Positions 4,865-50,687 of a stretch of DNA of 64,000 nucleotides are shown piece after piece; positions within the stretch are counted from its first letter, which is position 1; each line of letters starts with the position of its first letter. Position numbers and translations under genes: made by a program. The stretch is taken from positions 9,215,306-9,279,305 of the forward strand of contig NC_057755.1 of assembly GCF_004010195.1 (NCBI RefSeq), in the 5' to 3' direction. Source of the stretch: Chiloscyllium plagiosum. Lineage: Eukaryota. Under the pieces are notes generated by a model that worked only from the letters and a program-made list of their open reading frames with translations, made no database searches and had not been told where the DNA came from.

Positions 4865-4934
4865 ATGGTGCAACCGATAATTCTACGGATTAAGATATTT
4901 TTTTACCCGATTCTTGCAGCCTTTGGCATTCCTG
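4865..4934 (+). CDS. GPR139-like GPCR, copy 1, coding exon 1: MVQPIILRIKIFFYPILAAFGIP
   Basis: ATG at 4865, 70 nt open, ends CCTG|GTATGT donor. Phase 1, joins in frame to the acceptor at 6915/6916. Confidence 0.85.
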
Positions 4935-5104
4935 GTATGTCAGCAACATGGAGATTGCGGTTGAGATAGTTATTTGGACTGGAGACCTTTGACTTGTGCC
5001 GTGCCACAAGGATCACTTTTGGCGACATTTCGGTTTGTACATTTATTTCAACAATTTGCATGATAATATTTGCAGTATGATCAGTAAATTTGCGCATGAC
5101 ACTT

Positions 5105-5990
5105 AAACTGATAGTACTGAGGAGAATGAAGAAATTTATCTAAATTTCAAGAGGCCTTGAACTTGGCCACTGAGAAGTGAAGTGACAAATCAAGCTTAAT
5201 TAAGATAAATGAAAGGTGTTGCATATTGGTAAGGCAAACCAGGACAGAACTTACATAGTTAGTGGTAGGGCTGTAGGGAGTATTATTGGACAGCAGGACG
5301 GAGGGATGCAGTTACATAGTTCATTGAAAGGGGCGTTGCACTTGGACAGTATGGTGACCAAAGGTGTTTGGCACATTTGCCTTCACTGGTCAGAGCACTA
5401 TGTATAGAAGTTGGGGTGTCATGTTTCAAATGTACAAAATATTGTTGATGCTGCTTCTAAAATAGTGTGCATATTTTTTCCTCGCTCTTGTTTAGGAAGG
5501 ATGCGGTAAATTAGAAAGAGTGCATAGAAAAATTCAAGGACCTTGCTGAAACTGTAGGATTGAGTTAAAGATGATTTTGATACGCTGGGTCTTTTTTCTC
5601 TTTTTGGTATGAGGCAGAAAGATCACGTTATAGATCTACATAATGTCATTAGGATATTGGTAATGTAAATAGCAAAGGCCTATTTCCTCATGGTAGTTGA
5701 GTACAAAACTCGAGGACGTAGGTTTAACGTGAGAGTGGAAATACTTAAAAGGAACCTGAGGGGCAACATTTTCACGAAGAGAGTGGTGCACGTATGGAAT
5801 GAGCTGCCAGAGGAAGTGGTGGAGCAGGGTAAAATTATAACATTGAAAATCTATTTGAACATGAAAATAAGCAGGGAAGATTTAGAATGGAACCGAACAA
5901 ATGCAGTCAAATGGGATCGGTTAAGTGTTTATTACCTCGTTGCACGGATTTGTTGGACCAACGTTTAAGTTTCCCTGTTGTGTGAATCGA
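5105..5990 (+). mobile_element. 5'-truncated CR1 LINE in the intron of GPCR copy 1
   Basis: VLHIGKAN; RGNIFTKRVVHVWNELPEEVVE (CR1 ORF2 C-terminus). Confidence 0.85.
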
Positions 5991-6915
5991 GTGTGTGGCT
6001 GTAATCACTGTTTATCTGCAGAGCAGAATGGGATGCCTGAGACATCTTCTGTCAATGTACTCAGTGAACAGGTACGCACCTAGTAGAAGTATAGAAAACA
6101 GGAGCAATGTGAAGCTTTTCGGCCCTTCATTTCGAATAGAGAATCTCAGTTATCAGAATTGTACTGGCATTCACTGGCGCTTATTGGAAGCTGTCTGTAT
6201 TCGTTAATATAATCAGAATTAAATAAAGGGACAATCCGATGCAGCCGTGATGTTACAGCTTGTGGAAAACCCTGATTTAAACTGGCCATTTATATCACAT
6301 TTTTTTAAACTTTGGTTTATCCATTTAATCTGTCGATTTGCTTGATTGACTTTGTGTGAATGTTGGGGCGAGAATCAAAGTGAAATAAATTTAAATATGA
6401 ACCACTATTTTGATAACCATGCCTTTAATTTTAATTTTGCCCTGCCATAGTTGCTGCCCACTTAATAACTTGTTCGGTCCTGTTTTTGAATGGAAGATTT
6501 CTCATGTCAATTAATTTAAATCCTTCACTGCTGATTAAACGTTTACTGCAGAACGATTGTGGTCATGTTTAATGGTGATTGAATCACTTCATTTTACTGT
6601 GTTGTGAATGTATAAAAAACAGGGAGGTGGATTAGATTTACGTTTTAGTCTGCATTAATCTCACGGATGACCTATATGAAGGATAAATGCCACAGTATAC
6701 TTTGATCTACTTAATAGTTGGAGCACTAAACTAGAAGATGCTGAAATCGAGCCAAACTTTCACTCTCTCTATTCTGAGTGTCCCATGTGCTATTAGAGCA
6801 TCATGAAATTTCGAAACTCATGTGCATTTAAGGAGCACCATTGGGTATATTTCCAAACAGTTCCAGATCTTTGAGTGATTCTGTTTTTAAACCTTTTGTT
6901 AAATTTCACAACCAG

Positions 6916-7809
6916 CAAACCAGCTGACAATAATAATTCTCTCCAGGGGAAAGTGCTGCATTTCCGATTCTGCCTCTGCCTACATGGTCGCCATGGCAAC
7001 AACTCCTCTTCTGCTGATGATCTTCAATGTGCATCACATTTTCCGTTTTCATTTTATACATGCCTTCTTCTCCTACACTGGATTTTGTAAGTTTGTTATC
7101 TACATGAGCGCTGCCAACCTGTACATGGCAGTGTGGTTCACTGTCTTGTTCACATTTGATCGATATATAGCTATATGCTGTGGGAGGCTGAAAACCAAAT
7201 ATTGCAGATGGAGGAGAGCAACTGCAACTATATTGAGCAACACTCCCGTGGTTTACCTTGTGAATATACCCTATTGGTTTGCACATGAACCTGAACAAGT
7301 AATTGATCATATACAGCGAGGTTGTCGCCACAATCTGAAATTCTTCTCTTCTCCAGCAGGTGCGACATTCTCCTGGTTTCAAAGTACCTTAACTGTTTGT
7401 CTTCCCTTTTCTTTGTTCAATTCCTTAGCTGTCAGACTCATTGTAGTCGCAAACAGAGCGCGCAGGGTCATCCGGGGATGCAAAATTGACAGTCAAGAAG
7501 ACCCAGAGGTGATGAGTCGAAGGAAGTCCATCATTTTACTCTTCACGAGATCGGCCAGCTTCATTTTTCTGTGGTTGACAATAGCGGTGAGCTTTTTTAT
7601 CTGCAAGGATAACAGACACTGCACGTTATCAAGGTGATTATGCAGTTCCCACCTACATTGCCACTGAAATCGGGCTCATGCTTACGTATTTGAATTCATA
7701 TACAAACGTGTGCATTTATGCAGCCACGCAAAGTAAATTCAGACAGGAGGTGAAGAAAGTGTTGGCCTCTCCTTGGCCACGTATTCTCAAACTAGCCAAT
7801 CGAAATTAG
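6916..7809 (+). pseudogene. GPR139-like GPCR, copy 1, exon 2; one +1 frameshift in the T6 run at 7593-7598 (young pseudogene or assembly error)
   Basis: ACCAG|CAAAC acceptor, then ANQLTIIIL...FTFDRYIAICC...SFIFLW in ORF 6984-7637. Removing one T restores ...VSFLSARITDTARYQGDYAVPTYIATEIGLMLTYLNSYTNVCIYAATQSKFRQEVKKVLASPWPRILKLANRN* ending at TAG 7807-7809. Confidence 0.85.
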
Positions 7810-7912
7810 AAAGGACAGGTGTCCTATTCTCTGTCTGCTTGCGTTGCTCTGTCTCATGCAGATAACTAAATCTCTTAGTTTTCAATTTCCTCAATTCAAA
7901 TCTAAATGTTTG

Positions 7913-7918
7913 AATAAA
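7913..7918 (+). other. Candidate polyadenylation signal of GPCR copy 1
   Basis: AATAAA about 100 nt after the stop, followed by GT/T-rich sequence. Confidence 0.4.
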
Positions 7919-8169
7919 AAATGATGAAAACTGTGTGTGATTGTATACCATTTTTCGGAAATTATGTTGTTTGTTTTAGTTTTGTCAAGTTAAAATGGTG
8001 GATTATTTTCTTATTGTTTGGGAACCATCCAAAAAGCAGTTGGAATTCTGCTCCAACAAAGACAGTCCTTTTGGTGGTCAGATGGGGAATGAACGCATTT
8101 TATTACATGCCTCTACCACGCCTCGGCTTAGGGATCTCTTATAGCTCGAAAGTGACTGATTGATTGACT

Positions 8170-14559: not shown

Positions 14560-15990
14560 ATAACTTTTGAGTTACCCAAAATGCTAAATACGATTGACAT
14601 TGTGGATGTAAAGAGAGCATGTTTCCTCATGTTGTTCAATGTCCCCAGAAGGTGCTGGAAATCGGAACCAAACTGACTCAATATAATTGGGAGATAAACG
14701 ATTTTGTGTTAGTAATGGGCCAAAGGGTTATGAAAAGCAGGCAGGAAAATAAGGTTGAGGCCAAGATGAGATCACTTATGATCGTATTGTTTGGAAGAAC
14801 AGGGCTGAAGGACTGATTGACCAATTCCTGCTCCTACTTTTGTGTTCTTATAAAGATTCACTCAGGACTATTTATATCCCTTACTCAGCAAACATCTCTT
14901 TAGAGTAGTTGAACAAGATTTCATTTTTTATGGCTTAAAATACGACAAGCTTATGGTTAGAATTAAGGTTGGCATTAGCCTTAGCCCTATCACTCGAATC
15001 TGAACAGTACCAAATTTGATCCAATTCGCTGAAAGTGAATCTAACCTGATGGAACTTCTGCCCGTGGCCTCACAGTCTTAATGAGTCGCCTCAACCTTAA
15101 GGCGTCTCCTCAAGCTTTCTTGCATCAAAAAGAATGATCCCATTTGTTCCAACTTTATGCGGTGAATAAATATCTTCATATCGGGTGCCAAATCTTTTCT
15201 TGTTCCCTGCACAAAACTGACACAGCTTGACAAATTTGTGGAGGACGGATCATTACAATGGGGCTACAGCACGGATTTTTACATTTGTCCAATTCGTGCT
15301 GACTTATGATTTCCCCTTCATTGTTTCATTTAAATTACGAATTCAGAACAATGAAGTCCACCTAAATTGTCGTACGATGTTGTGTTTTGTTCTAATCGAT
15401 TGATCATTAGAAATAACAAACAGAGAACATCAGTATTGAGGAAGGACGCTCTTTTGGAGGAATTTTCATGGCACTAAAACAAACCAGTGAACGAAATGTA
15501 CAAACCACCCATTGATATTGTGTAGCATGTGCAGCTCTAGAATCTACATAATACGTGGAATTTCATTCTGTAGGATAAGTTCCAGAACAATTTTACTGGA
15601 ATGTTCCCTGGGCTCCAGGGAGATGCTCACGAAAAGAGATTCGTTAAACTGGTATCGCTAGCATTGGAACAGAAAAAAAAAACTTGATTGGGAGAATATT
15701 TGGAAAGTATGAAAATAATAGGGATTCAAGCATGTTGATCAGAGAAAACTTTCGCATTTTTAGAAAGATTAATAATCAAGGGACATTGATGTATGTTAAC
15801 GGCAGAAGACTTGGAGGAAATGAGAATAAAAAAAACTCAAAAAGTTGATGGGAATTCTGAACTCAACACCTAAAGACTGTCACAAGCAGAGCTCCTCATA
15901 ACAATAAAAATATGTGATTTTGTAATGCCAATACACACAAGCATTTTTGACCAAGAGCTGGAAAGTAGTAGGAGAATAGCTAGGTGGTTC
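14560..15990 (+). mobile_element. Old CR1 3' fragments in the intron of GPCR copy 2, shared with 40690-42250
   Basis: Degenerate CR1 C-terminal sequence; colinear with the region after pseudo-exon 40474. Confidence 0.6.
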
Positions 15991-16300
15991 GTTTTGATCA
16001 GTGAAGACTTGATATGCTGATGGTACTTCCCCTGTGCTCTAATCCTCTTTGATTCGACGATGTTCACTAAAACAAATTCATGATGACAACATGAAATTAG
16101 GTTCATCAATGTGTCTGAGATTTGGAGCAGACTCTGATTACTTATTACTGAGCCATTTAAGAAAGTCAGGAACTCTCAATTTTTTTCTTTTTACCCCATA
16201 TAATCATTTTCTTACAACTGATGTTACATTTCTGTGTTGTGTTATTCCAGAATCCAAAAAAAAATTGAGTCAATGCTTTTCTCCTGTGTCTTGTTTACAG

Positions 16301-17097
16301 CGAACATGATAACGATTGTCATTCTTATACGAGGAAACTGTGGCCTCTCGGAGTACATCTATACCTATACGCTTGCAATGGCAACAACAGACATAATAGT
16401 CATAATCATTAATGTCATCTTTAATATCATTCATATTATCACTTTCCATTGTCTTTTCTGTCTCTTGTGCCCATCTGTAAATTTAGTTCCCATATAGTTT
16501 GTCTTGTGCTTGATTTAGCAATGTGGTTTAAAGTCGCCTTCACTTTTGACCGCTTTGTCATTATCTGCTGTCCATTGTTTAAGACACATTATTGTACCGT
16601 GCAAATTGCATCGACGGTTATAACTGTGAGCTGCAACGTCATGCTTAATATAGATATCACCATTTCATTTCAATTATGGTATTTAATGCGTGGATCGTCA
16701 GATATATACTAGTGAGCAGCAAATCCAGAAGACTGCTTTGGAGTCACACAATTGACAATCCATTGTGATGCCCAAAATGAAGAATCGAATAATATACATT
16801 ATTTTGTAGTTTGCCAAATCGGGAAATTTCATTTTATTGTGGATTACAACTGCGATACTCTTTTCAATGACCATACTCACAAATATTAGCGAGGATGCCT
16901 TGGAAATCCAATACACATTGCAGCCGAAACTGGAGGCATGCTGTGACATTCGAGATCCTGTTCAAAAACTTGCGTTGAAAAACACTGCCACAGAAGAAAT
17001 TCAGTGAAAACTTGGTGGGTCTTCTCAAATCATCCCGTGCATTCTTTGCAAAGTTGTTAAATATGAAAGGAAGATGATTGAAAATACCTCTTGGTAG
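16301..17097 (+). pseudogene. GPR139-like GPCR, copy 2, exon 2 pseudogene
   Basis: TTTACAG|CGAAC acceptor, then ANMITIVILIRGNCGLS. After a frameshift, ICKF...FTFDRFVIICCP. TM4-ECL2 deleted near 16635, with several stops and frameshifts. 3' end and 3' flank match copy 3. Confidence 0.88.
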
Positions 17098-20631: not shown

Positions 20632-22930
20632 ACAACAATCACAGCAAAACAGAAAATCCAATCCAGAACCTTTTGGAACACTAGTTGTCAATGATTTGTA
20701 GCCTGGAAATAAAAAAAAAACCCTTCAACCACAATCCACTGTCGTCTACTGGCAAACCAAATTCTGAACTCAAGTGACAAAGTCACCATGAATTGCCCAC
20801 ATTGTAATCTTCTGGATGAACCTAGCATGAGGAGACTGGGAGAAGAACAAACCAGAGGAGTCGTGGAAGTCATACTTCCCTCCAAGTACTCTCCGACCAC
20901 TTGTGCATCTAGATTCAGAGATGCATCTTCCAAATGCAGGGAGCATACAGTGACTACTTTCCCCTATTCAGAGAACAAACAGTGATATCCTTTTTTATAT
21001 ATATAGTGAAGGCATAACGCTAACTTTGGATTTAATGCAAGTCAAAAATATAACATTCCCACAGTTCGAAAACTCACAACATTCTACATTCCCGCATTAC
21101 GTGTGTTGGTGTTATTATCACTGCAGAGTGAAGTGGTTCAGGTAAGAAAGGTTGTTTGGTGCTTTGTTATTCGGTGACAGGACTGATCTCAAGACACAAT
21201 CGGAAGAATATTATTAACAACAAATTTACTATTATCAGTTAAACTTGCAATATGGCCGAGTCTTCTTCCTCGAGGTAGTATAAACAAGGATATGTCCTTG
21301 GAAAGAAACATTGAAGATATCCACTCTTTGATTATTGTGGTAACACCAAAATACTGTGGTGCATTCGTTTCCATTTACATTGTCCATGCACATGCATAAA
21401 ACATGCAGACAGTCGAGTCAATTAGCAACACTTTCTCAAGTTCCAAGAGGGAAATGATGTTCCAGTGTTATTATGGCTGGATTATTATTTCAAATACCCA
21501 CGCAATGTTCTGATATACCTGTGTTCAAATTCCATCAAGGTCTGAGTTTTTCTTCATCCTTACTGGTAATGAAAGAGCAGTGAAATTTGAACAGAGAATG
21601 AATGGAATTAACAGGTGAGAGAGTTATCATTAAACTTTTGCCTATCTATCTCTAAAGTCATTTCGGGAAGCCACAGACGGATAAGACCAATCCTTATGAA
21701 CCTGTCTACTACCACCCTCTCCCTCAACGTCAGGAAAAAGTCATAAATCCTTTACTATATGAAACAAATCCACATCTCCATTCCCACATGACGAGTCGGC
21801 AACATTAGTGAACTCATAGGATTAAATCAAAACTCATAGGTATTCACGGTCCATCGATATATTCTGTGTCCGTGCTCCTCCGTCCACTTCACATGTTGAA
21901 GGAGCAGCACGTCTAAAGCTTGTGAATTGAAGCAGATCTTTTGGACTTTAATTTAATGTTGTATGAATTTGACCTTGTCCACCCTGGTGAAACAGTGAAA
22001 TTTCAACTTTATTTAGTACTCTGAATATATCACAATGACATCATAAAGCACAACACCATCTCAGTGGGATAAACCTCATCGACTCTTCCATTATCTAAAT
22101 TCTTTTCGCTAAATGTACTGTAGTGTCTCGTCTCCCAGTTTTCCTTGCTAAACAAATTTAAGTTCATTAATAACTCAGCGGAAAATTGCATGAATCACAA
22201 GAGAATTCGTCAAAATCAACTCCTTCTTCCCTGATCATCTTTTATTCCACAGCTTCCCCACTGCATATCTTTGCTGTTCTTCACAGTTCACAGGGAATCC
22301 ATAAATAATGAGGTCAGACAGAGTAGTATGATTGCTTTGTTATTTCACAGTTTAAAGTATTTAGCCTGGCAAGAGGCAAGGATGGATCTTCCTTGTTCTG
22401 ATGTTTCTTGCTATTGTAAGTTTTGATAATCGTGTTACAATACTTGATCCATCGAGATTGCAACGGAGAGGAGAGAAGAGGTGCTGGTGTATTGGCAATT
22501 CACTCGATTGGTAGTCCAACACACCAGGATAATACAGGTGGGAACAAATGTTGACATATTTTTGTCGCAGACTCTGTAGATTTATTTTGATGAAAATCAG
22601 ATATAAACACCTGACCGAGTTTTATACATAAATGGGCGTCACTGGCTGGGCCTCCATTTCATCCCTCATTTCCATTGAACTTGATGGTGAGCTGCCCTCT
22701 TGAACCTCTGCAGTGAACTTGCTCTTCCAGAATGCATTGAGGAAAGGAGTTCCTGGATTTTGGCCGAAATAGATGTCACCACTAGTCATTATTATAAAAT
22801 AAAACAACTGCCTTTTCAGGAAAGAAAAGAAAAGTCCCATCCTTCCCTGATTTGGTCACCGTGTAATTCCAGACACAGCAATATGATTGACAGATTGCTG
22901 CCTCTGGCAGTTAAGAATGGGAGAGGCAAT

Positions 22931-25900
22931 TGTGACGATGCTGACCCTTCAAAAAGGTTAACACGGTTATGCTGTTCTTGGCGTTTATTTTTTTCATAAA
23001 AGCAGCATTTCTGAAAGGTCCAGTTTGAATGGTTTTTAGTGCCAGCTTGATTACTGTTAATAGATACTGCCTAAGAAAAAAAAGCATTCAAGTTTTAAAA
23101 AAACTTGCAAAATAAAAGGGGAGTGGCCAGATCTGCCAGATTATATTTCCTCTGGAATGTTGTTGTTTAGCAAGCTTGTATATTTTGAGTTTGCTTGTCC
23201 AAGAAACAGACACGTGGAAGAAGCTGTTCCAAGATAAGTATGTCTGGCATTTCTCTGTCGCCGGCAACAACTTGTCTTTGATTTTCCATTTTTTGTCCCA
23301 GGAGTGTTTATTATGCAGAATGTTGAAGGAATTTGCAACAGCATCATTCAATTAGAATAACCTGTCTGGTTTTCGAATAGATAAACTTAATCTGTATTTT
23401 CTTCTTTTTTTGCGTGTTTCATTCCGAAATCTTGTAAATAAATTTAGCTTTATTTAAAACTAAGTGGTTGGGCCAACTGCATTAGTCCTGGAATATGCAT
23501 TTCATACCTGCTTAAAGCAGTTAGAAAGTTAGTGCCTGGGCTAGTTTCTTGAAATGTTTTGAGGAGCTCTGACCTGGTATATAACATTTTGGAGGCTGTT
23601 TGCGGGATTTGACCAATGATTCCAAATTGGGGTTATTATTGTTGGACTCAGAGGCTGTGAGTGGCATCTGTTGGTGTCATTTGTTCTCTGTGTTGATTTC
23701 AGTTGGATTAAACAGTGCTTGGGATAGCATTGGCTCTTTCAGTCACTGGCAGTTTTCTGGGTATTGAAAAAGTGACTTTCGACATTTAACAAAAGGTGAG
23801 TAAGGTCCAACTACTGGAATGAGCTGCGGTTGTGGCTGTCTCCTTCCAAAAAGAAAGGAGACAAAAAGAAATTACAATAATAGCTCAGGACTTAGGTTTG
23901 TTGATAATGCCACCAGCAATCTTGTGGATGCCTAAAATGTAATCGAAAATGATGCAGCTTGAGTTCGAGATAAACAAAATAAGGAATGGTCAACAGAAAT
24001 GAAACGGTTACACTGAAAACATCACTTCCTGTGGAAGAGCAGTGAGTTCAAACGGCAAGATTTGCAGCTGAAATGGCTGACGATTGTTAGTTGGTTCTTA
24101 CATCAAAGTTTAACTTCCAAAATCAATTTTAATTCGTGAGGGATAGAAATTGGAGAAAAAAAATCTCAGTCTGAAAGTGAAAGGTAGCTCTCGGTAAACG
24201 TCATCCCAGTAATTTACCACAGGGTGAAAAGGAAGCCCTTGAAGTGGAAAGAGAAGTGTTTTTAAAAGTTCCCGTTTTTTTCACTACAATAAAGTAGGCC
24301 AATTGAAATCGCAATGTTGTTGGGTGAGGAAACGCACTGTGAAGCCTAATTTAAGAAAATAGAATAAGCCAGAAACGTTTTGGAGTAGTTTTGTAAAGCA
24401 CAGTGAAGGTTAGAAAGCTGCAACAAAATGTACGAGCAGGTAGGACAATGGTTATTGAAGAAGTCCAAGATCTTCTTAAACCAGGAGCAGAATTAAGTAG
24501 GTTACAATATTAAGAGCACAGGATCCGTTCAATCTGTGATGTTAAAAGATGTTGAGATGCATACCTCTGAAGAACTATTGCCAGAAAGAGTACTATGAGA
24601 AATTGACAGAACTTCATCAAGCAGTGTTACCAGTGAATAAGAGAAAGAAGACTTTCAGGTTGTGCACCGGCCTCACTTAGGGCGCCACTTAGGAGTGAGA
24701 AAATCACAGGCTGAAATACAAACACATTTTGAATGGCCTGGGCAGCACAAGGATGTAGTTGAATTTGACCAAATATGTGATAAATGACAAGTAATTGGAT
24801 AACTACTGGCGGTTATAAAATCCGTAACTTCAAGACATATTCCTGCATTTTAGGAAATTTTAGCAAGAGCCGTAATTGATTGCGTGGGACCCTTACCTAA
24901 AGCAAAATGTCTGAATCAGTATTTGTTAACAATAATGATAGAGGGATTGTGGAAGAGCCAGCCACTTTCTTCACCAGATACACACTACTCTCAGAGATAC
25001 AAATACATCAAGGAACAATCATTACATCAAAATGATTCAAGGAAGTTATGGACAGTTTAGGAATAAAAGCATTCAAATCTCCCGCTTAACATCCAGAGTT
25101 ACAGGGTGCGTTAGAAAGGTGGCATCAGACTACAGACCAACTTAATGCTTATACTCAAAACTATCCACAGGATTGGAACATGAGCATTCCTTTTGTACAT
25201 TGTGCGATCATAGATGAATCAACCAAATTCAGTCCATTTGAATTCGCTTTTGGGCCATAACATTGATTAAGGAGAAATTTGTAAGTTATGGTTCAGAGAA
25301 AACATCGTTGGACTATGTGTCAAACTTTCATGAGCAATTGAATCAAGCGGGGCAACTCACTAGTCAGCATTTAGACATGTCACAGCTTACAATGAAACAG
25401 AAAGGAGACAAGAAATGAGAAACTCGCAATTTTGCTCTTGGAAGTAAGGTGTTAGTAGTTTTTCCAGTGATAGGTGAACTTGTAAAAGCAAAGTTCATTG
25501 AATCTCATCACGTCTAAAGGGAATACACTGAGGTAAACTAATTGATAAGGATTGCAGATTTTATTTCCAGATGGAAATAAATCTCACGGACTATGACTTG
25601 TGATAATGATCAAAAGTTATTTTGATAGCGATCGAAAGGTAAAGGCGACTTTATCATGTTTGCAACAAGGAGTAAAGAGCCAAGTTCATAGGACTCTGAC
25701 TTGGGCATTCCTCAAATTAAATTGGACAATGAGGAACTTGTCAAAAATGTGGATAAATTATGAGTTACCTTCCAGAGGAAAATTGAAATGACCTGAAAGA
25801 ATTATTATCACTCTATAGGGAGATATGTGGAAATAGGCTGGAGGCTACGAACCTAATTAAGCATAATGAACATACAGGAGACGCTGTACCGATTATGCTG

Positions 25901-29690: not shown

Positions 29691-29859
29691 GTCGATGGTA
29701 TGATGCTGGAAAAGCATGGCAGGTCAGCAAGCATTCGTGCAGCAGTGGAGTCGACGTTTACGGCCGACTCTCTTGCTCCTAGGATGCTACATGACCTGCT
29801 GTGCTTTTCCAGCACCACACTCTCGACTCTGATCTCCAGCATCTGTAGAACTCACTTTC
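29691..29859. mobile_element. Penelope-derived inverted pLTR remnant (duplicate at 62590-62758)
   Basis: GCTGGAAAAGCA..CAGGTCA arm inverted against TGACCTGCTGTGCTTTTCCAGC; tail CTCTGATCTCCAGCATCTG. Confidence 0.8.
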
Positions 29860-30819
29860 GGCTATATATTTGAATTTGCTCAATCCAACAGGTAACTCAT
29901 TATCCCTAGGCATCGTTCCTTCTTGTACAATAAGCTTCATTCCTAACCTGCTTCGTTCAGTTTATCTTGTTGCTCTTCTGTCTCGTACCTGTCACATCTT
30001 TCATGGGTCTCAAGGCCTTTCTGGGAGATCGCTGCTGTACCCAACCTTCGGAGTGTGCACAGACGTTGTGAGCAATTTTGCTCTTTTCGTTTTATTATGA
30101 ATATAGAAAATCACTTGGAAACCTTACTGTCCAATTCAATTTTACAAAGCCATCTGCCATTGGAGACAGATAAGATGAGTGTTTGTTTTCTCTCAGAGAA
30201 TTGTGAGAGCTACGTAAACCTAATCCCCAGATTGTAGTAGTGACTGGGAAACCAAATACATTCAAGGTTGAGATCAATGAATTTTTAATTCGTAAAAGAT
30301 TCCATAGACACGTCAGTGGTTCAGTTGTGTGTGTCGTTGTGAGAAATCCGAAAATAGTAAAAATTGAACTGTGCTCTTATCAGATCAGTAGTGATCTAAA
30401 GTCTCAAAGTGAGCTAGTGGCTCCGAAAATAGATCTGGGACTCACGGTTTATTGCTCATGTGTTCTCCTTTCACCTTTTCCATTCAATATTGCTCAATGT
30501 GTCAAGATACACAGGAATTCTTTCAGTGGATAGTGAGGAAGGAATGTTGGATAATATTCTCAATCAAAAGCCGAACAATGGCAATTATTGTTCCAGAGAG
30601 TCATAGGAATAATGCTACATTATGAAGAAAGAGGCAGAGAGACAATTATACGTTATGTAACCGCGTTGTGACCATACGTCAAGCAAGAGACAAGTATAAG
30701 GGGTTTGGAGCTTCGAACAGAAGTGCAGCCTGAACAAGAATTGCACTATCGTTTCTTCCATCACCACATATTGCAAAACAGCTTCTTAGTTAAAATGAGG
30801 CGATCGCCTCGTGATCTTT

Positions 30820-33800
30820 ATCACTCACCAAACCAGATTCCAGAGTAATGTTTTGCGGACGGGTTCGAATCTCGCATGGTAGATGGTGGAGTTTGAATTC
30901 AACAAAAATAAATCTGGAACTAACAGCCGGCTGATGACCATGAAACCACTGTTAACTCCATCTGGCTGACTAAAGTCCTTTTGCAAGGAGATCTGGCATC
31001 CTTACCTCTCCTGGCGCACATGTGACTCCAGAGCCACAGCAATGTGGTTAATTTACAACAGCCCTCTGAAATGGCCCAGCAAGGTACTCGGTTGTATTAA
31101 TCACTATAGAGTCAAAACAAAGAAATTAAAGCAGATGGACAACCTGGCATCGACCGTGGAACCGGAAAGGACAACGGCAATAACAGACATACGCCTGTCT
31201 ACCGTGCAAAGTCCTTCTTACCACAATCTGTGTGCTAGTGTCGAAATTGGTGGAGCTGTCTCTCAGATTCGTAAAGCAACAGCCTGACACAGACATTTTT
31301 ACAGTAACATACCTAATATATAACATTCCTTACACCAAAGACACCATCCCTGTATTTTTCTACATCACTGCTAGGACAGCCTCAGTAAAGTTGACGATAA
31401 GTGGTATACAGTCGGGCAGGAGTTGCCTTGGGAATCCTTTACATCGACTCTGGATCCCATGAAGTCTCGTGCCTTAAGGTTAAACACAGGCGAGGAACTG
31501 TTTTACTGGTCACCACGTAACGTCATTTTTCGGCTGATGAATAAGTATTCCTCTCTGCGCAATCAGATTTGTACGAAGGTCTGAGGATGTCAAGGGCGCA
31601 AGGTCGGGGATTTCAATGTCCACCACCAAAGGTTGATGGGCAACAGCATTAATGATCAAGGTGGTTGCATCCTAAAGGGTATAACTGCAAGACTGGGCCT
31701 GCAGCAGCTGGTGAAGGAACCAACAAAAGAAAAATCATCCATGACCTCATCCTAACTAATCTGCCAGTTGCAGACGTATTCTATCAATGAACAACGTAAC
31801 TACCACACTGTCCTTGTGGGACAAATTTCCACGTTCGCATGGAGAATACCGTGCTGAATAGGACATTCTTTGAACCGATCTAGCAACTCAAGACCAGTCA
31901 TCCATGTGGCGCTCTGGGCCATCAAAAACAGCAGAGCTACACTCCAGCGCAAGCAACACCATCATGGAATGGCATCTCCCCCACTCAACCGTTTCCAGCA
32001 AGGCTGCGGTTCAACCCTGGTTCAATTGAGTGTGCAGGAGGGCATGCCAGTAACAGCAGCATGCACACCTAAAAATGTGGTAATAACCTGGTGAAGCTAC
32101 CAAACAGGACTACGTATGTGAGAAACGGCATAAACAGCAAGTGATAGGCTAAATAACGTGATCCCACGACAAACGGATCAGGTCTAAGCTCTGAAGTCCT
32201 TCCACATCCAGTCGTGAATAGTGGTGGACAATTCAACAACTCACCAGAGGAGGAGTGCCCATAAATATGCTCTTCCTCAATGTGGTGCCCAACATCCGTG
32301 CATTCGATAAAGCTGATGCATTTGCAAAAGTCTTCAGTCAGACGTGCCGAGTGGATGATCCAACTTGGGTACCTGCCGTGGTCCCCAGCATCACAGGTAC
32401 AAGCTTCCAGTCAATTCGATTCACTTCACGTGGTATCAAAGGAAGTCTGCAGGCACTGGATGCTGATAAACCCAAGCAAAATTACTGAAGACGTGTGCTC
32501 CAGAACGTACTGCTCCTTAACCAAGCTCTTCCAGTATAACTGCAACACTGGCATTTACCTGGATGGGCGGGAAATTCACCAAGTAACGTTCTGAGCGCAA
32601 AAAACACAAATCCAAACCAGCCAATTACCGCCCAATCAGTTTAATCTCTATCATCGGCAAAGTCATGTGAGGAGGTTTTCAAAAGTGCTCTCAAGCAGCA
32701 CCTGTTCAGCAACAAGCTGCTCAGTGTGGATTCGCCAGGGTCAATCAGCTCCTGACTTCGTTACAGCCTTGGTTCAAAAATGGACAAAAAAGCTCATTTC
32801 CACAGGTGAGGTGAAGGTGACAGCCCTTGACATTAGGGCTGTGTTTGAACGAGTATGGCATCAATGAAAATATGGGTATCGGGGGAAAGTCTCTGCTGGT
32901 GAGAGTCATAACAGGCGCAAAGGAGGATGGTCGTCGTTGTACAGGATCAGTCATCTCAGTTCCAGGACATGTAAGCAGGAAACTCTCAGGGCGAAGTCCT
33001 AAGCCCAAAAATATTCAACTGCTTGCTTAAAGACTTTTGCGACTCCTCAGATACTGGCGCAATCCGTGCCCAAATGCAACATGACCTGGACAGCATCCAG
33101 ACTTGAGCTGACCTGTGGCAAGTAACATGCGTTTCAGACAAGCGACAAACAATGACCATGACCAGTGAGAGGCACTCCAACCACCGCCCCTTGACATTCA
33201 ACGTTATTACGACCAGTGAATCCCCCACTGTCAACATACTGACCAGAAACTCACCGGACTCACCACATAAACACAGTGTCTACTTTAGCAGATCAGAGAC
33301 TGTCCTGGAACTGAGATGACTGATCCTGTACAACCACGACCATCCTCCTTTGCGCCTGTTATGACTCTCACCAGCAGAGACTTTCCCCCGATACCCATAT
33401 TTTCCAGTTTTCGAAGGTCTCCTTGATGCCATACTCAGTCAAATACAGCCCTGATGTCAAGGGCTGTCACCTTCACCTCACCTGTGGAAATGAGCTTTTT
33501 TGCCCATTTTTGAACCAAGGCTGTAACGAAGTCAGGATTCTGCGGCGAGTAACTGACCTCATACCCAAAAATGTATGCACAAACTTCAAGGCAAAAATCA
33601 GGAGTGTGATAGAATACCCCCCACTAACCTGGATGGTTGCAACTCCAAAAACATGCAACAAGCTGAACACCATCCAAGACAAATCAACCCGCTTGATTGG
33701 CATCCTACCTACAAACATTAGGTCCCTCAACGACCGGCATTCAGTAGCAGTAGCGTGTACTATCGACAAATGCACAGCAGAAATTCTCCAAAAAATCCTT

Positions 33801-35499: not shown

Positions 35500-35610
35500 T
35501 TAATTCCTTTGAGAGATGACGTGTAGTTAAATAGAAGATGTCTCTTCAGTCACTGGTGAGCACTTGTCTGAGTGTTTCACATCGAACAAAACATATCACT
35601 CTTCAGAAAA
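35500..35610 (+). promoter_or_regulatory. Conserved proximal promoter/5'UTR of GPCR copy 3, paralogous to about 40365-40473
   Basis: Shared ATTCCTTTGAGAG ... CTGAGTGT(T/G)TCACATC ... TCTTCA..AAAATGG between copies 3 and 4. Confidence 0.55.
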
Positions 35611-35680
35611 ATGGAACGGTCGATGATTCTGCTGATAAAGGAGATTTATTATCCAATTCTTGTCACCATCGCTTTCCCTG
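35611..35680 (+). CDS. GPR139/GPR142-like orphan GPCR, copy 3 (intact), coding exon 1: MERSMILLIKEIYYPILVTIAFP + first base of the Ala codon
   Basis: ATG at 35611, 70 nt open, ends CCTG|GTGAGC (canonical donor). Same length, phase and YP-I-L motif as the exon at 4865-4934. Splices in frame to 36736. Confidence 0.88.
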
Positions 35681-36735: not shown

Positions 36736-37664
36736 CAAACGTGATGACTATTGTCGTTCTTGTACGAGGAAACTGCGGCCTTTCTAAATGCATATCTGTA
36801 TACTTGGTTTCCATGGCGGCAGCAGACCTATTGGTTGTAATCAATGATGTAGTAGTTTACAACATTCTTATGTATCACTTTCCATATTCTTTTCTGTCTC
36901 TGACCCATATTTGTAAGTTTAATTTTTACATGCGTTGTGTTATACTCAATTCCTCGTGCTGGTTCACAGTCACCTTCACGTTTGATCGCTTTGTCATCAT
37001 CTGTTGTCCAAAATTTCAGACAAGGTATTGTACTGTGCGAATTTCAGCCACAGTTATAACAGTGATCTCTGTCCTCATGTGCATCAAGGATATCCCAGTT
37101 TTCTTTGCATATGAACATGAACACGTTATCAAACACGTGAAATGGAATTGTCAGTCAAGTGTGACATTTTTTTCCTCAATTGCAGGAGTGGTGTACATCT
37201 GGTCTTTCAGCGTCTGTTTAGTTTGGTTTCCTTTCATTTTAATTGTCTTATTTAAGTCTTTGACGGGCAGACATATTCTCGTGAACAGTAAAGCCCGCAG
37301 AACGCTTCGGGGTCACACAGTTGACAATCAACGTGATACTGAGATGACGAATCGGATGAAATCAATTGTTTTACTCTTTGCCATCTCCGGAAGTTTCGTT
37401 CTGCTGTGGATGACAACTGTGCTAAACCTTGTAATTAACAGACTGACAAATCCTACTTATTATCGAGGAGATCTTGGAAATCCAGCATATATTGCTGTCG
37501 AAACTGGAGCCATGCTGAGGTATTTGAGTTGCTGTTCAAACACGTGCATCTACGCAGTGTCCCAGAGAAAATTCAGAGAAGAACTTGTCAATGTTTTGAA
37601 ATGGCCCTGTGCATTCATTTTAAAGTGGTTAGAAATGAAAGGAAGACAGTTAAAAATACTTTGA
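36736..37664 (+). CDS. GPR139/GPR142-like orphan GPCR, copy 3 (intact), coding exon 2; spliced product 332 aa, 7TM class A
   Basis: Pyrimidine tract + TACAG| acceptor, then ANVMTIVVL, MAAADLL (TM2), ICKF and ECL2 WNC (disulfide Cys), FTFDRF (TM3), WFPF (TM5), SGSFVLLW (TM6), SNTCIY (TM7), SQRKFREE (helix 8). Uninterrupted ORF 36741-37664. Confidence 0.92.
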
Positions 37665-39780: not shown

Positions 39781-40473
39781 TGGTTTAAGAGGTGATTTGA
39801 TAAGTATCGTGAAGAAAAATAAAGCTAAAGACAGGGTTTGTAAAATAGAACATTTCCAGTGATTGAGAATTCGGGAATGAGAGACATAGTCTGAGAATTA
39901 GGGGCAGAGGGCTGAATTACGAAGCAATTTTACACAATAACGAAAGTGATGGTTGGTTCAATTGATCATTTTACAATGGCGTTCAATATTCTTGTATTGC
40001 AATGATATCAAAAGAGATGAGCCAAAGTGAGTTCCCACATCGTCCATGATCTCAATAAATAGCTGAAGACGTTCGTTGGTCAAAATGGCCTCCTTTCGTA
40101 CTAGAGGTATTTTATTGCTTTTATAGTGGATATGTTGAAAGTCAGATCAGTGATGCTCTGATCAAGTGACGCAGGAGGCTCGAGGAGGCTACATAGGGCT
40201 ACTTGTGGTATTTTGCTCATAACCTCAACTACATTCTCATTTATGTCATGATTTGTTGGGGAAAAACTTAAATCACGCCTCTCACGTGATTGATCAAAAA
40301 TAGTCACATACACGCAAATTTGTGAAGCGTCTACAACAGATTTTCACTCATGACAGACCTCGCCCATTCCTTTGAGAGGCGATGTGCCATTACTACAGGA
40401 TGTGCCCTCTCATACTGATGTATAGTGTTGCTGAGTGTGTCACATCAAGCAGAACTTACATCTTCATAGGAAA

Positions 40474-40543
40474 ATGGAAAAGCCACTGACTGTACTGATT
40501 AAGGAGATATATTAACTAATTATTGCATTTGTAGTTTTCTCTG
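40474..40543 (+). pseudogene. Orphan pseudo-exon 1 of a GPR139-like GPCR (copy 4): MEKPLTVLIKEIY*LIIAFVVFS
   Basis: Exactly 70 nt, shares IKEIY with copy 3. In-frame TAA at 40513-40515 and donor changed to ATGAGC. About 110 nt upstream aligns with the copy 3 promoter/5'UTR. Confidence 0.8.
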
Positions 40544-42356
40544 ATGAGCCATGTGATCTTATATAATGTTTGTAAGATCTCGGCAATGCATTCTCTGGTG
40601 TTTTACCGATCAGTTTTCAACCAACTATCCACGTTGTCCCAGTCTCAGTGAAGTAGTAATCTTGCTGATGATGTCATAACTTTGAAGCATGCCAAATGCT
40701 AAATTGGATTGGCAGAGTAGACAGAGACAGGATGTTTACTCAATGGGCGAGTTATGTTTCGGGAGGTCATTGGAATGGGATCAGGTGGAGTAGATATGGA
40801 GCAGATTCATGGAGAAATTACCTCTCGCAAACGATTGTGAACGTGTGAATTTCAATGCTCCCAGAGTATGGTGGAATTCGGAAGCTAATTGAATCAACAG
40901 AAATAGGAGATGGACATGTATTATATTAGTAATGAATTAAATGGTTGTGAAGAGCAGGCAGAAAAATGTCTTTGAAAAAAAATGAGCTCAGTTATGTTCA
41001 TATTTCCTGGTGGAGCAGGTTCAAGGGACTGAATGACATAATACACCGCCCAATTCTTCTCTTCCTATAATGGCTAACTCTGGAAAATTTACATTTCCTA
41101 ATCATAAAACATCTCCTGAGATTAATTTAGCACGATTTCCTTTTGATTGCTTAAAAATATGACAGGATTGAGATTAGAGTTTCAGTTATCCCTATCCGTA
41201 TCACCCGAATCTTTACAGCATTAAATTTGTCATAACTCGCTGAATGTGAACTTAACCACATGATGGAAATTTCGCCCGTAGTAAGATGAATTAACATCTC
41301 AACAAAATTCCTTCTCAACATCCTTAACTTCACAAAGAATAGTCACATTTGTTCCAACTTTATACGGTGACTAAGTTTCTTTGTATCTCGTCCAAACTGT
41401 CTCTTATTCTCTGCACACAGTCTGGAACCACACAGCTTGGCAATGTTATGGAAAATGAATCAGTCCAATTGGAATACCGCAGACATTTGAAAATCTGTCC
41501 CTCCTTGGTAATTTATGAATTCTCCTTTATGAGTAATGTAAATCATGAACTGAATGTAATGAATTTGTAAATTGGGATGCATTTTTTAAAAAATCGAATA
41601 GTCATTTGAAATGCAAAAAAAAGAGAACCCTGTATTGTGGAGACATAATTTTATGTCACAAAACTCAACCGTTGAACAAAATGTACATCTCACCGCTGGA
41701 AATTTTGGATCGTGTGCAGTGCTAGAACGTTTTTAATTAGGAGAACGTGATTGCACTTGAGAGGATCCCGAGCTTATCTATCAGAATGTTGTCTGGGCTC
41801 GAGCGAATCATTCATGAAGAGAGATTGCTTAGATTGATATCACTAGCATTGCAGCAGAAGAGGTTGGGAATAGATGTGTATGAAACATTATTATTAGAAT
41901 CTAATGAACTATTAGAAGCATTGACAGGGAGGACGAACTAAACTTTTCCCTTTATTGCAAGTGTCAATAACCATGGGGCCTGGAAGTAAACTAAGGTCAG
42001 AAGGCTTGGACGAAATGAAACGAAAATTATTTTCATCCAGATGGTGATGGGAATCTGGAACGCAATACAGTTAAGACTGCCAGAGGCTAAGCCCCTCATA
42101 ACGTTAAAAAATATGGTTTGCAATACCAATGCATACACGGGTTTTGGGCCAAAGGCTGCAAAATGGGATTAGAACAGTTAGATGTTTTGTTTTAACTGTT
42201 GAAGATTTCATGTGCTGAAAGTGTGTTTTATTTGCGTTAATCCTTCGGAAATCTATGACTTTTAGTGAAATGTCATGGTCACCACATGAAATTCAGATTA
42301 TCAGTATGTTTGACATTTTGAGCAGATTGTGTTCACTAATCAGTAAGTCATGGCAG

Positions 42357-44999: not shown

Positions 45000-45630
45000 A
45001 TCTCCCTCCGTGAGTCCCTCGTCAGATCCACACCCCCCACCAACCCAACCTCCACTCCCGGCACCTTCCCCTGCAACCGCAGGAGGTGCAAGACTTGCGC
45101 CCACACCTCCCCCCTCACCTCCCTCCAAGGCCCCAAAGGAAACTCCCATATCCACCACAGATTCACCTGCACCCCCACACACATCATCTATTGCACCCTC
45201 TGCACNNNNNNNNNNNNNNNNNNNNNNNNNNNNNNNNNNNNNNNNNNNNNNNNNNNNNNNNNNNNNNNNNNNNNNNNNNNNNNNNNNNNNNNNNNNNNNN
45301 NNNNNNNNNNNTCAGTCAAATCCATCGAACTCAGCACCGCCTTCCTAACCTGCAATCTTCTTCCCGACCTCTCCGCCCCCACTCCCGTCTGACCTATCAC
45401 CCTCACCTTGACCTCTTTCCACCTATCACATTTCCGACGCCCCTCCCCCAAGTCCCTCCTCCCTACCTTTTATCTTAGCCTGCTGGACAAACTTTCCTCA
45501 TTCCTGAAGCAGGGCTTATGCCCGAAACGTCGATTCTCCTGTTCCCTGGATGCTGCCTGACCTGCTGCGCTTTTCCAACAACACATTTTCAGCTCTGATC
45601 TCCAGCATCTGCAAACCTCACTTTCTCCTC
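45000..45630 (+). mobile_element. Penelope-like element 3' part (Cys/His linker, start of GIY-YIG endonuclease, pLTR), spanning an assembly gap
   Basis: LRESLVRS..PGTFPCNRRRCKTCAH..FTCTPTHIIYCTLC; downstream pLTR with a hammerhead-like motif at 45504-45531. Confidence 0.85.
45206..45311. other. Assembly gap (106 N)
   Basis: Run of n. Confidence 0.99.
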
Positions 45631-45659
45631 AACTCTTCAAAATGAACCAGGGGGCACCA

Positions 45660-47040: not shown

Positions 47041-47209
47041 ACATTCTGAAGCACAAAAAAGTCAGTAAACTGATGTTTGACATGAACGAGTTGTGGACTG
47101 GAATCCCCAACCCCACGTCAATTTGAATGCCTCCTATATTTTGGTGCAAATCGTTCTAAAGCAGAGATCATGATTCATCCAGATATAGCAACTGGTCTTG
47201 TGCAACATC

Positions 47210-47940
47210 GAACTCGAAAGGAAGTGCAGGAGCACAGGGATCTGGGTACACATGAGCACAGAATGTGGCAGGACAGGTCCCGAGATCAGATGAAAAGCAC
47301 GCAGAGTTCTCAGCTCAATTAAAAGGACACACAGTATAAAACTAAGGAGGCAACATCAAACTTTAAAAAGGAACTTGTTGAGTATTTTGCACAGTAATAT
47401 ATTTCCCACATAGAAGGAAAGATATGAAAGCAGTGTATGAGCACAGAAGCAATTGAAGAAATGGTGTCAGGCATGAGATATTTCATGAATGAGGATGGAT
47501 TGAAGACGCTGAGAGTGCTCTTCTTGGAGATAATACGAATGAGTGGATATCAAAATCGAGAGGGGGCGAGAACGTGTCGATGGGAAGAAATTGATTCTGA
47601 TGAAAAAAAGAACGAGAACGAGAACGAGAGTGTAGAGATTAAGTCATCTGTAAAATGAGGATGTTGAAATGAGTAACAAAACATCTGCCTCTGGGTTCTC
47701 ACAACATTTCCCCTGCTTGAAATTATATTGGAAGCAAATCCACTTCAGGCCTTATCTAAGACAACAGATACATTTTGCGGGTGTGTTGGGGGGGGGGGGG
47801 GGGGGAGGGTGAGAGAAAGTCGCAAGGATATGAGGCTATAGTCGATGATTGGCACTCGGTAATGTTTCTCATTTAATGGAACAGTGCTAACACGATGGCC
47901 AAAAAGCGGCCTTGCGTACTGGAAGATTTCAAAGATACTG
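47210..47940 (+). mobile_element. Highly decayed CR1 fragment
   Basis: CAGGGATCTGGGTACACATGAGCACAGA and following sequence resemble CR1 ORF2 C-terminus. Confidence 0.5.
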
Positions 47941-49798
47941 AAAATATCATGGTAACATTACTGTGAAGAGAATTTTGAAGTTAACAAACCTGCACTACAC
48001 TAATAGCACAGACCCGACGTTTGATATGAGAATTTGAGATCTAAGACAGAAATTAGAGGACATAAGAAATACTCTGAATTTGTTTAAATCAGTGTTGAGA
48101 CCTGAATGCAGTAAAGTGCCTCAGCAAAAAAAGAAACTCAACTGTATCCATAGCTTTGGTCCAGATTTACCAGAAAATGAGCTGTTCCTCAAACGTGCAA
48201 TGACCGCACATAGACATGCTATAGTGTCTAAAACAGCTCTCTTTCACAAAAAATGGAAGACATTTACGAATGAGGTGGTTATCATCCTTATATGGTACAA
48301 TTGATGACTGTCTGATTCCTATGCATAAATCCTGAAGGTGAATAGGTAGCATCTTTCATTTCACAATCAATATCGTTTCAGAATTAATCAATTTCTGATC
48401 TCTAAAATATTATGTTCTTCATAGAAACCTTGCGGATATTTAATTATTTTATTATATTGTTTTTATAATTTTGACCTGGAGCTATGAACTGCAAGCTGCG
48501 AGTTGAAAGATGAATTTGGGACAAGACTTGCAATACATTTATTTAAAAGAAGATGAAAATAATCAAGCTTCTGTTGAATGTGGTGACCAGATCTGGAAGT
48601 TAGGTGCACTTTGCCTCTTGATGGAAAGTGCCTTATCGATGTCTCGACTGCAGATGAAAGTTATGCACAAGCTGATTGCAGATGTTGAATGAAAACTGGC
48701 GCCTCGTGGAAAGACTGTCAGTCTGGCAGGGAGAGGTTGGAATTTTATCTGGTCTTTGGGTTCTGTTTAATGTGGAACGCTTCAACAGAGGTTTGGTGTC
48801 ATAGAATCATAGAGATGCGCACACTGGAAGAGACCTTTCGATCGCACTCGTCCATGTTGAACAGATCTCCAAAATTAAGCGAGTCCCATTTGCCAGCATT
48901 TGGTCTATATCCCATTGAAAATTTGCTTTTCATATGCCTGTTCAGATGTGTTTTAAACTTCGTAATTGTTTGAGCTGCCACCACTACCTACTTGCCCTCT
49001 TATCATGAAGATAATGAAAGTTCAGATAATACAATGCACAATTCTTTAGAATATTTTTCATATTTCTTGGAGGCTGTCTGCATGTATCAGTGTCATCAGA
49101 AACCAAGCTCAATGCAAGCCCATGTTGCTGTCATTCGTGTGGACCATAGAAACTGCTTATGGAAAGTGTCCAATCACATTCAATCTATTTTCTTCGCCTG
49201 ATGTATCGCTTAACTGCATTTAAGTGTCTGTCTACCTTCGCCTGAGTGATAGGGTGAGAGTTAAAGCGAGTTGAGTTAAATTTTAGGAATTACTTATTAT
49301 AACTTATTCGTTAATGTAGCCTTCATATGATTATTGTTCTGAGATAAAGTTACTGCGTGTTTTCTTGAGATTTAAAATCGTAATTGAATCTGGCGCAATG
49401 TATTTTAAGAGTCCAGTTAAGGAGTATTAGAATGCAGTGCAATGTGCATTGGATATTTTAATTCGATTGTGTTGCGGCTGCATGATTTGGCTATCAGTCT
49501 CCATTTCGTAATCTACTAAGAAGTTAACAGCTTTGATCACATTTTTCCATGGAATTGTTGAAAGCACTTCACGAGACGATTCAGGAAATAAATCAAATTT
49601 GAGTTACTCAGTACTGAGTATTCAGTGCTTTGTTGTTCAATAATGTAATTTCTAACACTTTAACATTTGTACAATTAAAAAAAATAGCACGGCACACGAG
49701 TTTCAATGGCAAAGCGTTTGAATGTTGCATCATAAAATTTTGCATATTTTTAGTATCTAAGCGATGCATTTTAAAACGATTGCCAATTTCACACGCAG

Positions 49799-50687
49799 CG
49801 AACCTGATGACAATAGTAATTCTCGCCATGGAAAACGGCGGCAGTTTTGAATGTTCTTCGAGCTATATCGTGGCCATGACAATAATAAATCCTATGATCA
49901 TGATCTTCGATGCAAATGTGCATCACGTTTTCGGTCAATACTTTACATATTCCTTCTTCTCTCACCCTGCTTTTGTCTGTTATTTAAGTCTATGAACTCA
50001 CTGCACATGTTTACCTTTGATCGATAGTAAGCTAGATGTTTTGAGAGGCTGAATACAAAGTATTGCAGAGTGAATACAACGGTTGCAGATGTAATGAGAA
50101 ATACTGCCTTGGTTTGACTGGAGAGCATATCCTTTTTGTGTGCATATGAACCTCAAATATTCACGGATCATTTACAGTGGGGTTGTTTCACCAAGTTGAA
50201 CGTTTTCACTTCAGCACTAGGTGTGCCTTGTTCCTGTTTACACAGAGCAGCATTTTAGTTCCTTGTTTTCCATTTCCTTTGGTACTCTTATATAATTGCT
50301 TGACTGTTAGACGTATTGTATTCACCAATAGATTTTCCAGGCCATCCGAGAACGTAATATTATGTGTCAAAGAGACTAAGAGATGTACAGTCATAAGATA
50401 CCTAAAATGCGAATCTTCACAATGTCAAACAGATTTATTGTTCTGTGGCTGACACAGCTGTAAACTTGTTATATATTAGGATAACAAACATCTCACATTT
50501 TCGAGTTGATTATGCAGCCCCAGGCCACATTGACACTGAGGTTAGCTACACACGCATGTATTTGAGCTCACATACACATGTGTGAATTGATGCAGCCAAA
50601 CAATGTAAATTCAGGAAAGAGGTGAAGAAAATATTGACGTCTCCTTGATCATACCTTCTGATGTTGTTTAATCGAAAGGAAAAGTGA
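49799..50687 (+). pseudogene. GPR139-like GPCR, copy 5, exon 2 pseudogene (copy-1 subtype)
   Basis: CGCAG|CGAAC acceptor, then ANLMTIVILAMENGG...YIVAM. TTTGATCGATAG is a DRY codon run with Y->stop. Also PCFPFPLVLLYNCLTVRRIV, DYAAP and KFRKEVKKIL. Multiple stops and frameshifts. Confidence 0.85.

Follow-up and report, generated by a model that had tools for sequence, protein, structure and literature searches.

A large GPR139-related receptor family in cartilaginous fish and its possible role as an olfactory repertoire

Results

Receptor gene copies in the window

The window, a 64,000-nucleotide stretch of Chiloscyllium plagiosum DNA (contig NC_057755.1, positions 9,215,306 to 9,279,305), is numbered along its forward strand. 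It contains five gene units, all on the + strand, from 4865 to about 50687, whose exon-2 matches were far beyond chance (tblastn E 0 to 2e-19). Pfam 7tm_1 was matched in both of the window frames scanned. Copy 3 is intact, whereas the other four units are broken members of a receptor family; their features are located as follows.

4761..4789, + strand: copy 1, element resembling a core promoter; TATA box retained, palindrome half degraded compared with its paralogues (joint score 12.0, palindrome part 1.7)
4865..4934, + strand: copy 1 exon 1; 70 nt, reading frame open, GT donor
6916..7809, + strand: copy 1 exon 2, pseudogene; frameshift near 7600 and two in-frame deletions
16301..17087, + strand: copy 2 exon-2 remnant; 133 nt deleted, frame broken by several shifts and stops
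35504..35535, + strand: copy 3 promoter region, a weak match to the family model; variant of the palindrome at -107, non-canonical TATA-like box (joint score 4.8 against a threshold of 12)
35611..35680, + strand: copy 3 exon 1; 70 nt, GT donor
36736..37664, + strand: copy 3 exon 2; joined to exon 1, encodes an intact class A GPCR
40248..40554, + strand: copy 4, promoter and exon 1 only (exon 1 at 40474-40543)
49799..50687, + strand: copy 5 exon-2 remnant, heavily decayed

Copy 3 splices to 999 nt encoding 332 aa and its match in this genome (G000) had an E value of 7e-206. A common architecture had been proposed for all five units in the preliminary description. The phase-1 intron at P|A-N was confirmed in copy 3, but the 70-nt exon 1 was found in only three units (4865, 35611 and 40474); no exon 1 was detectable for copies 2 and 5. 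The range of decay held from intact copy 3 through decayed copies to copy 4, which consists of exon 1 alone. There, exon 1 carries an in-frame stop, AT replaces the GT donor, and a search for exon 2 found none. Copy 1, described earlier as disabled by a single base, does have a one-base insertion near 7600 inside a T run, and has in addition lost 6 nt and 9 nt in frame. Copies 1 and 3 are indeed strongly divergent, with a protein identity of 42-50%.

Family size and taxonomic range

The suggested count of genomic copies gave at least 403 distinct family places in this genome (from 482 search rows) rather than a few, and all 128 scored matches of the genome search belong to this evidence for family size. 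Sampling of 80 x 10 kb of the genome recovered 6 open copies and 16 remnants in total, which suggests several hundred open copies plus additional broken ones. Some of the family matches on small contigs may be haplotype duplicates. In the 464 kb around the window there were 40 exon-2 remnants (12 open, 28 broken), 19 of them on the + strand and 21 on the - strand; the common orientation, correct within the window, is accordingly only local.

Protein searches returned 1,041 related proteins at E<=1e-20, and the best 120 of the 1,041 were all from sharks and rays. Family members were found in sharks, rays and one chimaera, and the family is multi-copy in sharks and rays alike. Many copies, many of them broken, support the lineage-wide expansion and birth-and-death turnover proposed at the outset. 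An assembly artefact was ruled out by the divergence of the copies and their presence in other species, and a transposon origin by the 7tm_1 domain and splice sites. A literature search found no description of the family and no paper treating it as a family.

Ancestry

Phylogenetic analysis recovered a family node at 98/95 and, as its sister, an orphan gene that is single-copy in amphibians and sturgeon (100/99), with the long-branch sequence P0190 excluded. In an earlier tree that included P0190, this sequence branched outside the amphibian gene, weakly supported, so that strict monophyly of all chondrichthyan copies is tentative. GPR139 (L031/L032) formed a clade of its own (100/100) with L033, which we take to be a GPR142-like gene from 56% identity, and the family lay outside this clade. 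It was not placed inside any characterised receptor family. Duplicates of GPR139 or GPR142 were rejected by the tree and by 20-21% identity to copy 3. The phase-1 intron before A-N in TM1 has the same acceptor position in L031, L033, L037, L048 and the family loci, so that the initial assignment as GPR139/GPR142-like is borne out in intron position but not in descent by duplication. Distinctness from OR, TAAR, V1R and T2R receptors was upheld, and the family does not belong to V2R either: only Pfam 7tm_1 was matched and the nearest relatives are GPR139-like.

A search of solved structures with a single sequence missed GPR139, while the family profile gave human GPR139 as the best match (69.5 bits vs 48). 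A fold search with the AlphaFold model of P0001 (pLDDT 73) placed generic peptide GPCRs on top and GPR139 fourth, without discrimination.

Ligand pocket and selection

The agonist pocket of GPR139 is formed by E3.32, F3.33, H5.43, W6.48, R6.51 and N7.38 (PMC7318219). Only W6.48 is kept in the family (85/90 members); entropy at positions 3.32, 3.33, 5.43, 6.51 and 7.38 was 2.9-3.6 bits, with R6.51 present in 7/90. Because the residues that bind Trp/Phe are not kept, the link to aromatic amino acids or nutrients made in the preliminary description is weak. It is very improbable that the family consists of aromatic amino-acid (nutrient) sensors of the GPR139/GPR142 type acting in gut or brain. 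The structure match of the family profile and the common intron position would fit such sensors, but E3.32, R6.51, N7.38 and H5.43 are not kept and true GPR139 and GPR142 persist separately as single genes.

Entropy in the pocket was 2.60 bits compared to 1.25 bits in the cell-interior half (p=0.0001 vs random sites, 0.027 vs other outer sites). Overall dN/dS was 0.32 (0.27-0.37; 24 pairs), and open copies are under purifying selection. This selection is not uniform but uneven across sites, with dN/dS of 0.49 in the pocket, 0.40 at outer and 0.25 at inner sites. In none of the three classes did dN/dS exceed 1.

We also considered mostly passive amplification, in which one modest function was copied often on duplication-prone chromosomes. 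The 28 broken copies among 40 remnants in the 464-kb region, the dN/dS of 0.45-1.3 in the youngest pairs, old segmental duplications present in the window and possible haplotype duplicates on small contigs are all compatible with it. It is nevertheless improbable given the low overall dN/dS, a median protein identity of only 45% in a family whose activation motifs are intact, multiple copies in both sharks and rays, and a promoter footprint kept across unalignable flanks.

Promoter pattern

An O/E(EBF)-like palindrome together with a TATA box was found in 22 of 35 mutually non-alignable promoters by leave-one-out scoring at a joint threshold of 12, as opposed to 0/35 introns, 0/32 far-upstream segments and 2/35 reverse strands, with a genome background of 1.2%. 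The remaining 13 promoters were under the threshold. Copy 3 and its subfamily scored 2.4-8.8, meaning that the window's own intact copy matches weakly. The de novo motif had a log-likelihood of 86.9 vs 46-53 in controls; a second de novo motif was noisy alone and became usable once tied to the first by spacing. The palindrome is similar to the OMP Ebf probe. A homeodomain-type TAAT, which lies outside the fitted model, was found upstream in 12 of 28 promoters, in 10 at one fixed offset. Many promoters thus have the homeodomain-type site, the palindrome and the TATA box in a constant spacing. Promoters of mouse OR genes are driven by O/E and homeodomain sites (PMC12547500). By analogy, the pattern suggests a repertoire of sensory neurons.

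EBF1 is a B-cell factor, and EBF factors act in B cells as well as in other neurons. The family could then serve immune surveillance, expressed in B cells or other leukocytes under EBF1 and sensing molecules that come from microbes or from damage, much as formyl-peptide receptors and mast-cell MRGPRs do. Immune receptors, too, would fit a pattern of birth-and-death turnover and variable pockets, and contig C44 carries Ig C1-set exons and C2H2 zinc-finger genes along with family copies. A common duplication-prone contig is however not equal to co-function, no class-wide positive selection was observed, and the adjacent homeodomain-type site at fixed spacing is similar to the olfactory arrangement. 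We regard an immune role as unlikely.

Rather less probable still is a non-olfactory sensory repertoire, MRGPR-like, in trigeminal, dorsal-root, skin, taste or lateral-line associated neurons. EBF acts with homeodomain factors in several neuron types. MRGPR-like repertoires are, on the other hand, not known to reach the several hundred genes estimated here, and the set of TATA, O/E and homeodomain sites is best documented for olfactory receptors. In favour of such a role, cartilaginous fish are reported to lack MAS1 and related receptors (PMC8455134), which leaves a MAS1-type role open.

Expression

No RNA data set was listed as containing copy 3. No reads fell on the copy 3 exons in the first 2% examined of a single usable run, the single-cell RNA run X5, whose tissue is not stated. 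RNA on L029 gave only a trace of related copies, namely a handful of reads and one partial contig (tissue not given). The catshark top-50 list for "brain and olfactory epithelium" contains no GPCR (PMC11979771).

Discussion

On the sequence evidence, we consider it somewhat better than an even bet (roughly 0.55) that the family is an olfactory or chemosensory receptor repertoire, about ten times the approximately 44 known shark olfactory receptor genes (mean 43.8 genes; PMC10869828). Slightly short of even odds is the fuller proposal that the main olfactory repertoire of cartilaginous fish, comprising between several hundred and about a thousand receptors, arose independently from an orphan gene related to GPR139 and uses the EBF and homeodomain promoter logic of mammalian odorant receptors.

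One ancestral GPR139-related orphan gene, single-copy in the amphibians and sturgeon searched, has multiplied in cartilaginous fish into a family in which copies are continually duplicated and lost. One or few copies per neuron may be switched on by EBF together with a homeodomain factor (Lhx2/Emx2-like). Every receptor would then recognise its own waterborne molecule, with signalling by one common G-protein route; in the catshark, Go and TRPC2 are markers of every olfactory neuron (PMC10116579).

The mismatch between the large olfactory organs of sharks and their about 10-50 recognised olfactory receptor genes has been explained by a sensitivity trade-off (PMC10116579, PMC10869828). With a family some ten times larger that has olfactory-type promoter sites and is hidden under a best-hit label, this question becomes directly testable on existing nose RNA data. 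If the fuller proposal is true, vertebrates would have one more major family of olfactory receptors, and the idea that sharks smell with only 10-50 receptors would have to be given up. Even with an immune or somatosensory role, the family would be among GPCR families a very large one, in a group that is reported to be poor in GPCRs (PMC8455134).

Comparison with known systems

Automatic RefSeq and UniRef models named "probable G-protein coupled receptor 139" in sharks and rays are the family itself, the name being the best-hit label. GPR139 and GPR142 resemble the family in D2.50, the DR motif and W6.48 but are single copy and lack the C3.25 cysteine, which is present in 89/90 family members. 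Three GPR210-type subtypes near GPR139/GPR142 have been described in non-mammalian vertebrates (Rinne et al. 2019, PMC6504862), where the word "shark" is absent from the main text. Three conserved GPR139-like lineages were found here too, and the family clades with them (97/99 and 100/97 in two trees), its sister among them being the amphibian/sturgeon lineage. Unlike the family, they are small subtypes in PMC6504862, and in the matches obtained here their pockets are invariant and each species has a single copy.

Among non-chordate clusters, invertebrate FMRFamide-receptor-like or Srw-type expansions come closest in features and in predicted structure; they are outgroups in the trees and any chemosensory use would be independent.

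The likeness to OR, TAAR, V1R/ORA and V2R/OlfC receptors lies in clusters, pseudogenes, a very short N-terminus and a variable pocket with a conserved interior, whereas ancestry differs, the family has a coding intron, and it matched 7tm_1 only. The mouse Lhx2/Ebf composite motif differs in having its sites 1 bp apart, as opposed to 2 bp in the shark sites, and in marking enhancers, not promoters. Mouse OR genes carry O/E and homeodomain sites in their promoters and, at the level of motifs, so do many family members.

Receptor gene copies in the window

A search of the window for units of the two-exon receptor family located exon 2 four times and the 70-nt exon 1 three times, all on the + strand:

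Window: G000:C46:9215306-9279305 (G000, the Chiloscyllium plagiosum genome)
Copy 3: 35611-35680 and 36736-37664, + strand, open 332-aa class A GPCR
Copy 4: 40474, + strand, promoter and broken exon 1

The preliminary description of five units sharing one architecture thus held for their number and strand, but a 70-nt exon 1 was detected in three only. The copy 3 protein has about 8 residues ahead of TM1. Copy 1 carries one frameshift and two in-frame deletions. All that survives of copies 2 and 5 is a decayed exon 2, a search of the window having detected no exon 1 for either. LINE-like frames occur near 12.7-14.0 kb, at the expected place of copy 2 exon 1. Because 14635-16156, before copy 2 exon 2, is 66% identical to 40851-42351, after the exon-1-only unit at 40474, the alignment suggests that these two copies derive from one unit type, each having lost the opposite half. 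Between the gene copies, some 11 kb of sequence was duplicated long ago (21305-32385 vs 52920-64000, 72-79% identity in blocks); this segmental duplication includes no receptor exon. The array also contains an assembly gap of 106 N (45210-45315).

Family size in the genome

The window and its surroundings, 464 kb in all, hold 40 exon-2 remnants of at least 300 bp, and in 12 of these the reading frame stays open for 309 aa or more. They occupy both strands, so that the same-strand arrangement described earlier applies within the window but not across the surrounding region. Four protein searches of the genome were then pooled, each scoring the best 117-128 of 3,575-7,858 loose candidates, and 7 rows that belonged to single-copy or unrelated genes were removed. 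The 482 rows, 410 of them with no stop within the match, collapsed to at least 403 distinct places. Of these, 34 large contigs carry 297; the other 106 are on small contigs, where haplotype duplicates may be included. Overlap of the searches gave lower bounds of about 720-1,240 places. In an independent sample, 80 stretches of 10 kb spaced as a grid over five contigs held 16 remnants, 6 open, of which 2 were already in the union of searches. Scaled up, those contigs would carry about 550 open copies and about 1,340 in total, with a wide Poisson range of about 200-1,200 for the open ones. The 90 retrieved loci with a long frame, which were the family places entered in the tree, form a single clade. 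The proposal of a lineage-expanded multigene family is supported by these counts. Contig C44, which carries at least 64 family copies, also has C1-set immunoglobulin exons and frames for C2H2 zinc fingers (L145:5115-7179, near 1.2 Mb; L151, L157 and other samples).

Range and ancestry

With the copy 3 protein as query, 1,041 of 1,960 candidates matched at E<=1e-20. The best 120 of these were from sharks and rays throughout, with 'probable G-protein coupled receptor 139' as the label in nearly every case. A set of 20 high-scoring cluster representatives comprised 19 elasmobranch proteins and one from a chimaera. The gene models are already in databases, under a best-hit name. No prior description of the family was found in the literature searched, which excluded most subscription journals, and GPR139 is unmentioned in the available main text of the shark-genome and chemoreceptor papers examined.

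GPR139 proper (C21) and a GPR142-like gene (C24) were separate single matches, sharing 21% and 20% identity with copy 3. In non-mammalian jawed vertebrates the searches found three more conserved lineages of GPR139-like genes, equal in number to the three subtypes named GPR210 in PMC6504862. Two have one orthologue each in this genome (L048/L062, G000:C26:36600769; L037/L063, G000:C98156:21305). Both are single-copy orphans whose orthologues are conserved in bony fish; L048 orthologues also occur in coelacanth, amphibians and reptiles, with no mammalian match among the best 120 listed. The third, from amphibians and sturgeon, has no single orthologue in the shark, where 119 matches among those scored were 29-37% identical. 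It grouped with the family at 100/100 (LG+F+G4, 46 rows) and 100/99 (mixture model, 27 rows), the family itself receiving 98/95. Duplication from GPR139 or GPR142 was rejected as the origin of the family, as both fall outside it in the 27-row tree. The intron position is identical in the family, GPR139, the GPR142-like gene and the GPR139-like orphans. A chimaera protein nests within the family with moderate support (84/93, 85/88), which suggests from tree position that expansion began early. The 304-aa protein P0248 branches at the base of the entire GPR210-like group (93/99, 96/91) which suggests a pre-vertebrate origin. The amphibian/sturgeon proteins (P0211, P0399, P0401, P0415) have S at N1.50 and N at D2.50, an apparently reciprocal change at two core GPCR positions.

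Protein conservation and selection

Median pairwise identity among 98 copies from this shark genome was 45%. N1.50, D2.50, C3.25, the DRF motif and W6.48 are each kept in 83-90 of 90 members. GPR139 agonist residues, taken from PMC7318219 and PMC12775434, are not kept: entropy at positions 3.32, 3.33, 5.43, 6.51 and 7.38 is 2.9-3.6 bits, whereas each single-copy GPR139-like lineage keeps them almost unchanged. Aromatic amino-acid sensing, as by GPR139 and GPR142, is accordingly given very little probability. In 24 of 29 sister pairs (5 with dS above 0.7 left out) dN/dS was 0.32 across the whole protein. It was lowest in the inner half (0.25), higher in the outer half (0.40) and highest, at 0.49 (0.34-0.73), in a set of 13 pocket sites picked from the same papers; positive selection was not seen in these values. 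Motif retention, pocket entropy and dN/dS together establish that the open copies are selected for function, with a constrained signalling face and a pocket free to vary. Passive amplification by duplication, to which the many decayed copies might be ascribed, is improbable.

Promoter pattern and proposed role

Of 67 exon-1 candidates, 8 were discarded as doubtful or broken and the remaining 59 reduced to 35 promoters that resemble one another no more closely than unrelated DNA does, with a median similarity of 0.38 in either case. The de novo motif, with a log-likelihood of 86.9 vs 50.8 for introns, 47.0 far upstream and 46-53 for four shuffles, is a 10-bp near-palindrome, TCYC-TG-GRGA (correlation with its own reverse complement 0.83), followed after 19-24 bp by a TATA box (spacing 21 in 13/27), the element lying 75-142 bp upstream of the ATG. 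Leave-one-out scores reached 12 in 22/35 promoters, vs 0/35 introns, 0/32 far-upstream stretches and 2/35 reverse strands; the background rate of the joint motif was 1.2% per window. TAAT, outside the fitted model, lies a short way before the palindrome in 12/28 sites, 10 at a single offset (background 8.7%; p=1.4e-6, best 4-mer chosen post hoc). Pairwise identity peaks at the TAAT site, palindrome and TATA box vs about 0.27 in flanks. In broken copy 1 (window 4761-4772) the purine half of the palindrome, kept in its three closest paralogues, is lost, a single case.

PMC5608512 gives an Ebf probe from the mouse OMP promoter whose core is TCCC-TG-GGGA, and a mouse composite probe in which TAATTG adjoins a similar palindrome; mouse OR promoters require O/E and homeodomain sites (PMC12547500, PMC7804114). 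Against the olfactory reading, the threshold was missed by 13/35 promoters, and the window's own subfamily, copy 3 included, scored 2.4-8.8. Copy 3 had 0 reads and another subfamily a trace (2% of one single-cell RNA run, tissue unstated). EBF serves B cells and other neurons too; that the members are immune receptors is a lesser possibility, and action in non-olfactory sensory neurons is unlikely.

Most likely, at a probability of roughly 0.55, the family is a receptor repertoire of olfactory neurons. A promoter code common to its members would then turn on one or few genes per neuron, and many ligands could be read across the receptors through a single G-protein route. In the catshark every olfactory neuron is Go/TRPC2-positive, vs only moderate-frequency labelling by a V2R co-receptor orthologue (PMC10116579); in our reading, and not that of its authors, this may leave room for a further receptor family. 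Spacing also tells against the likeness to the mouse sites: TAAT and palindrome are 2 bp apart in the shark family, whereas the two sites of the mouse composite motif are separated by 1 bp (PMC11643329).
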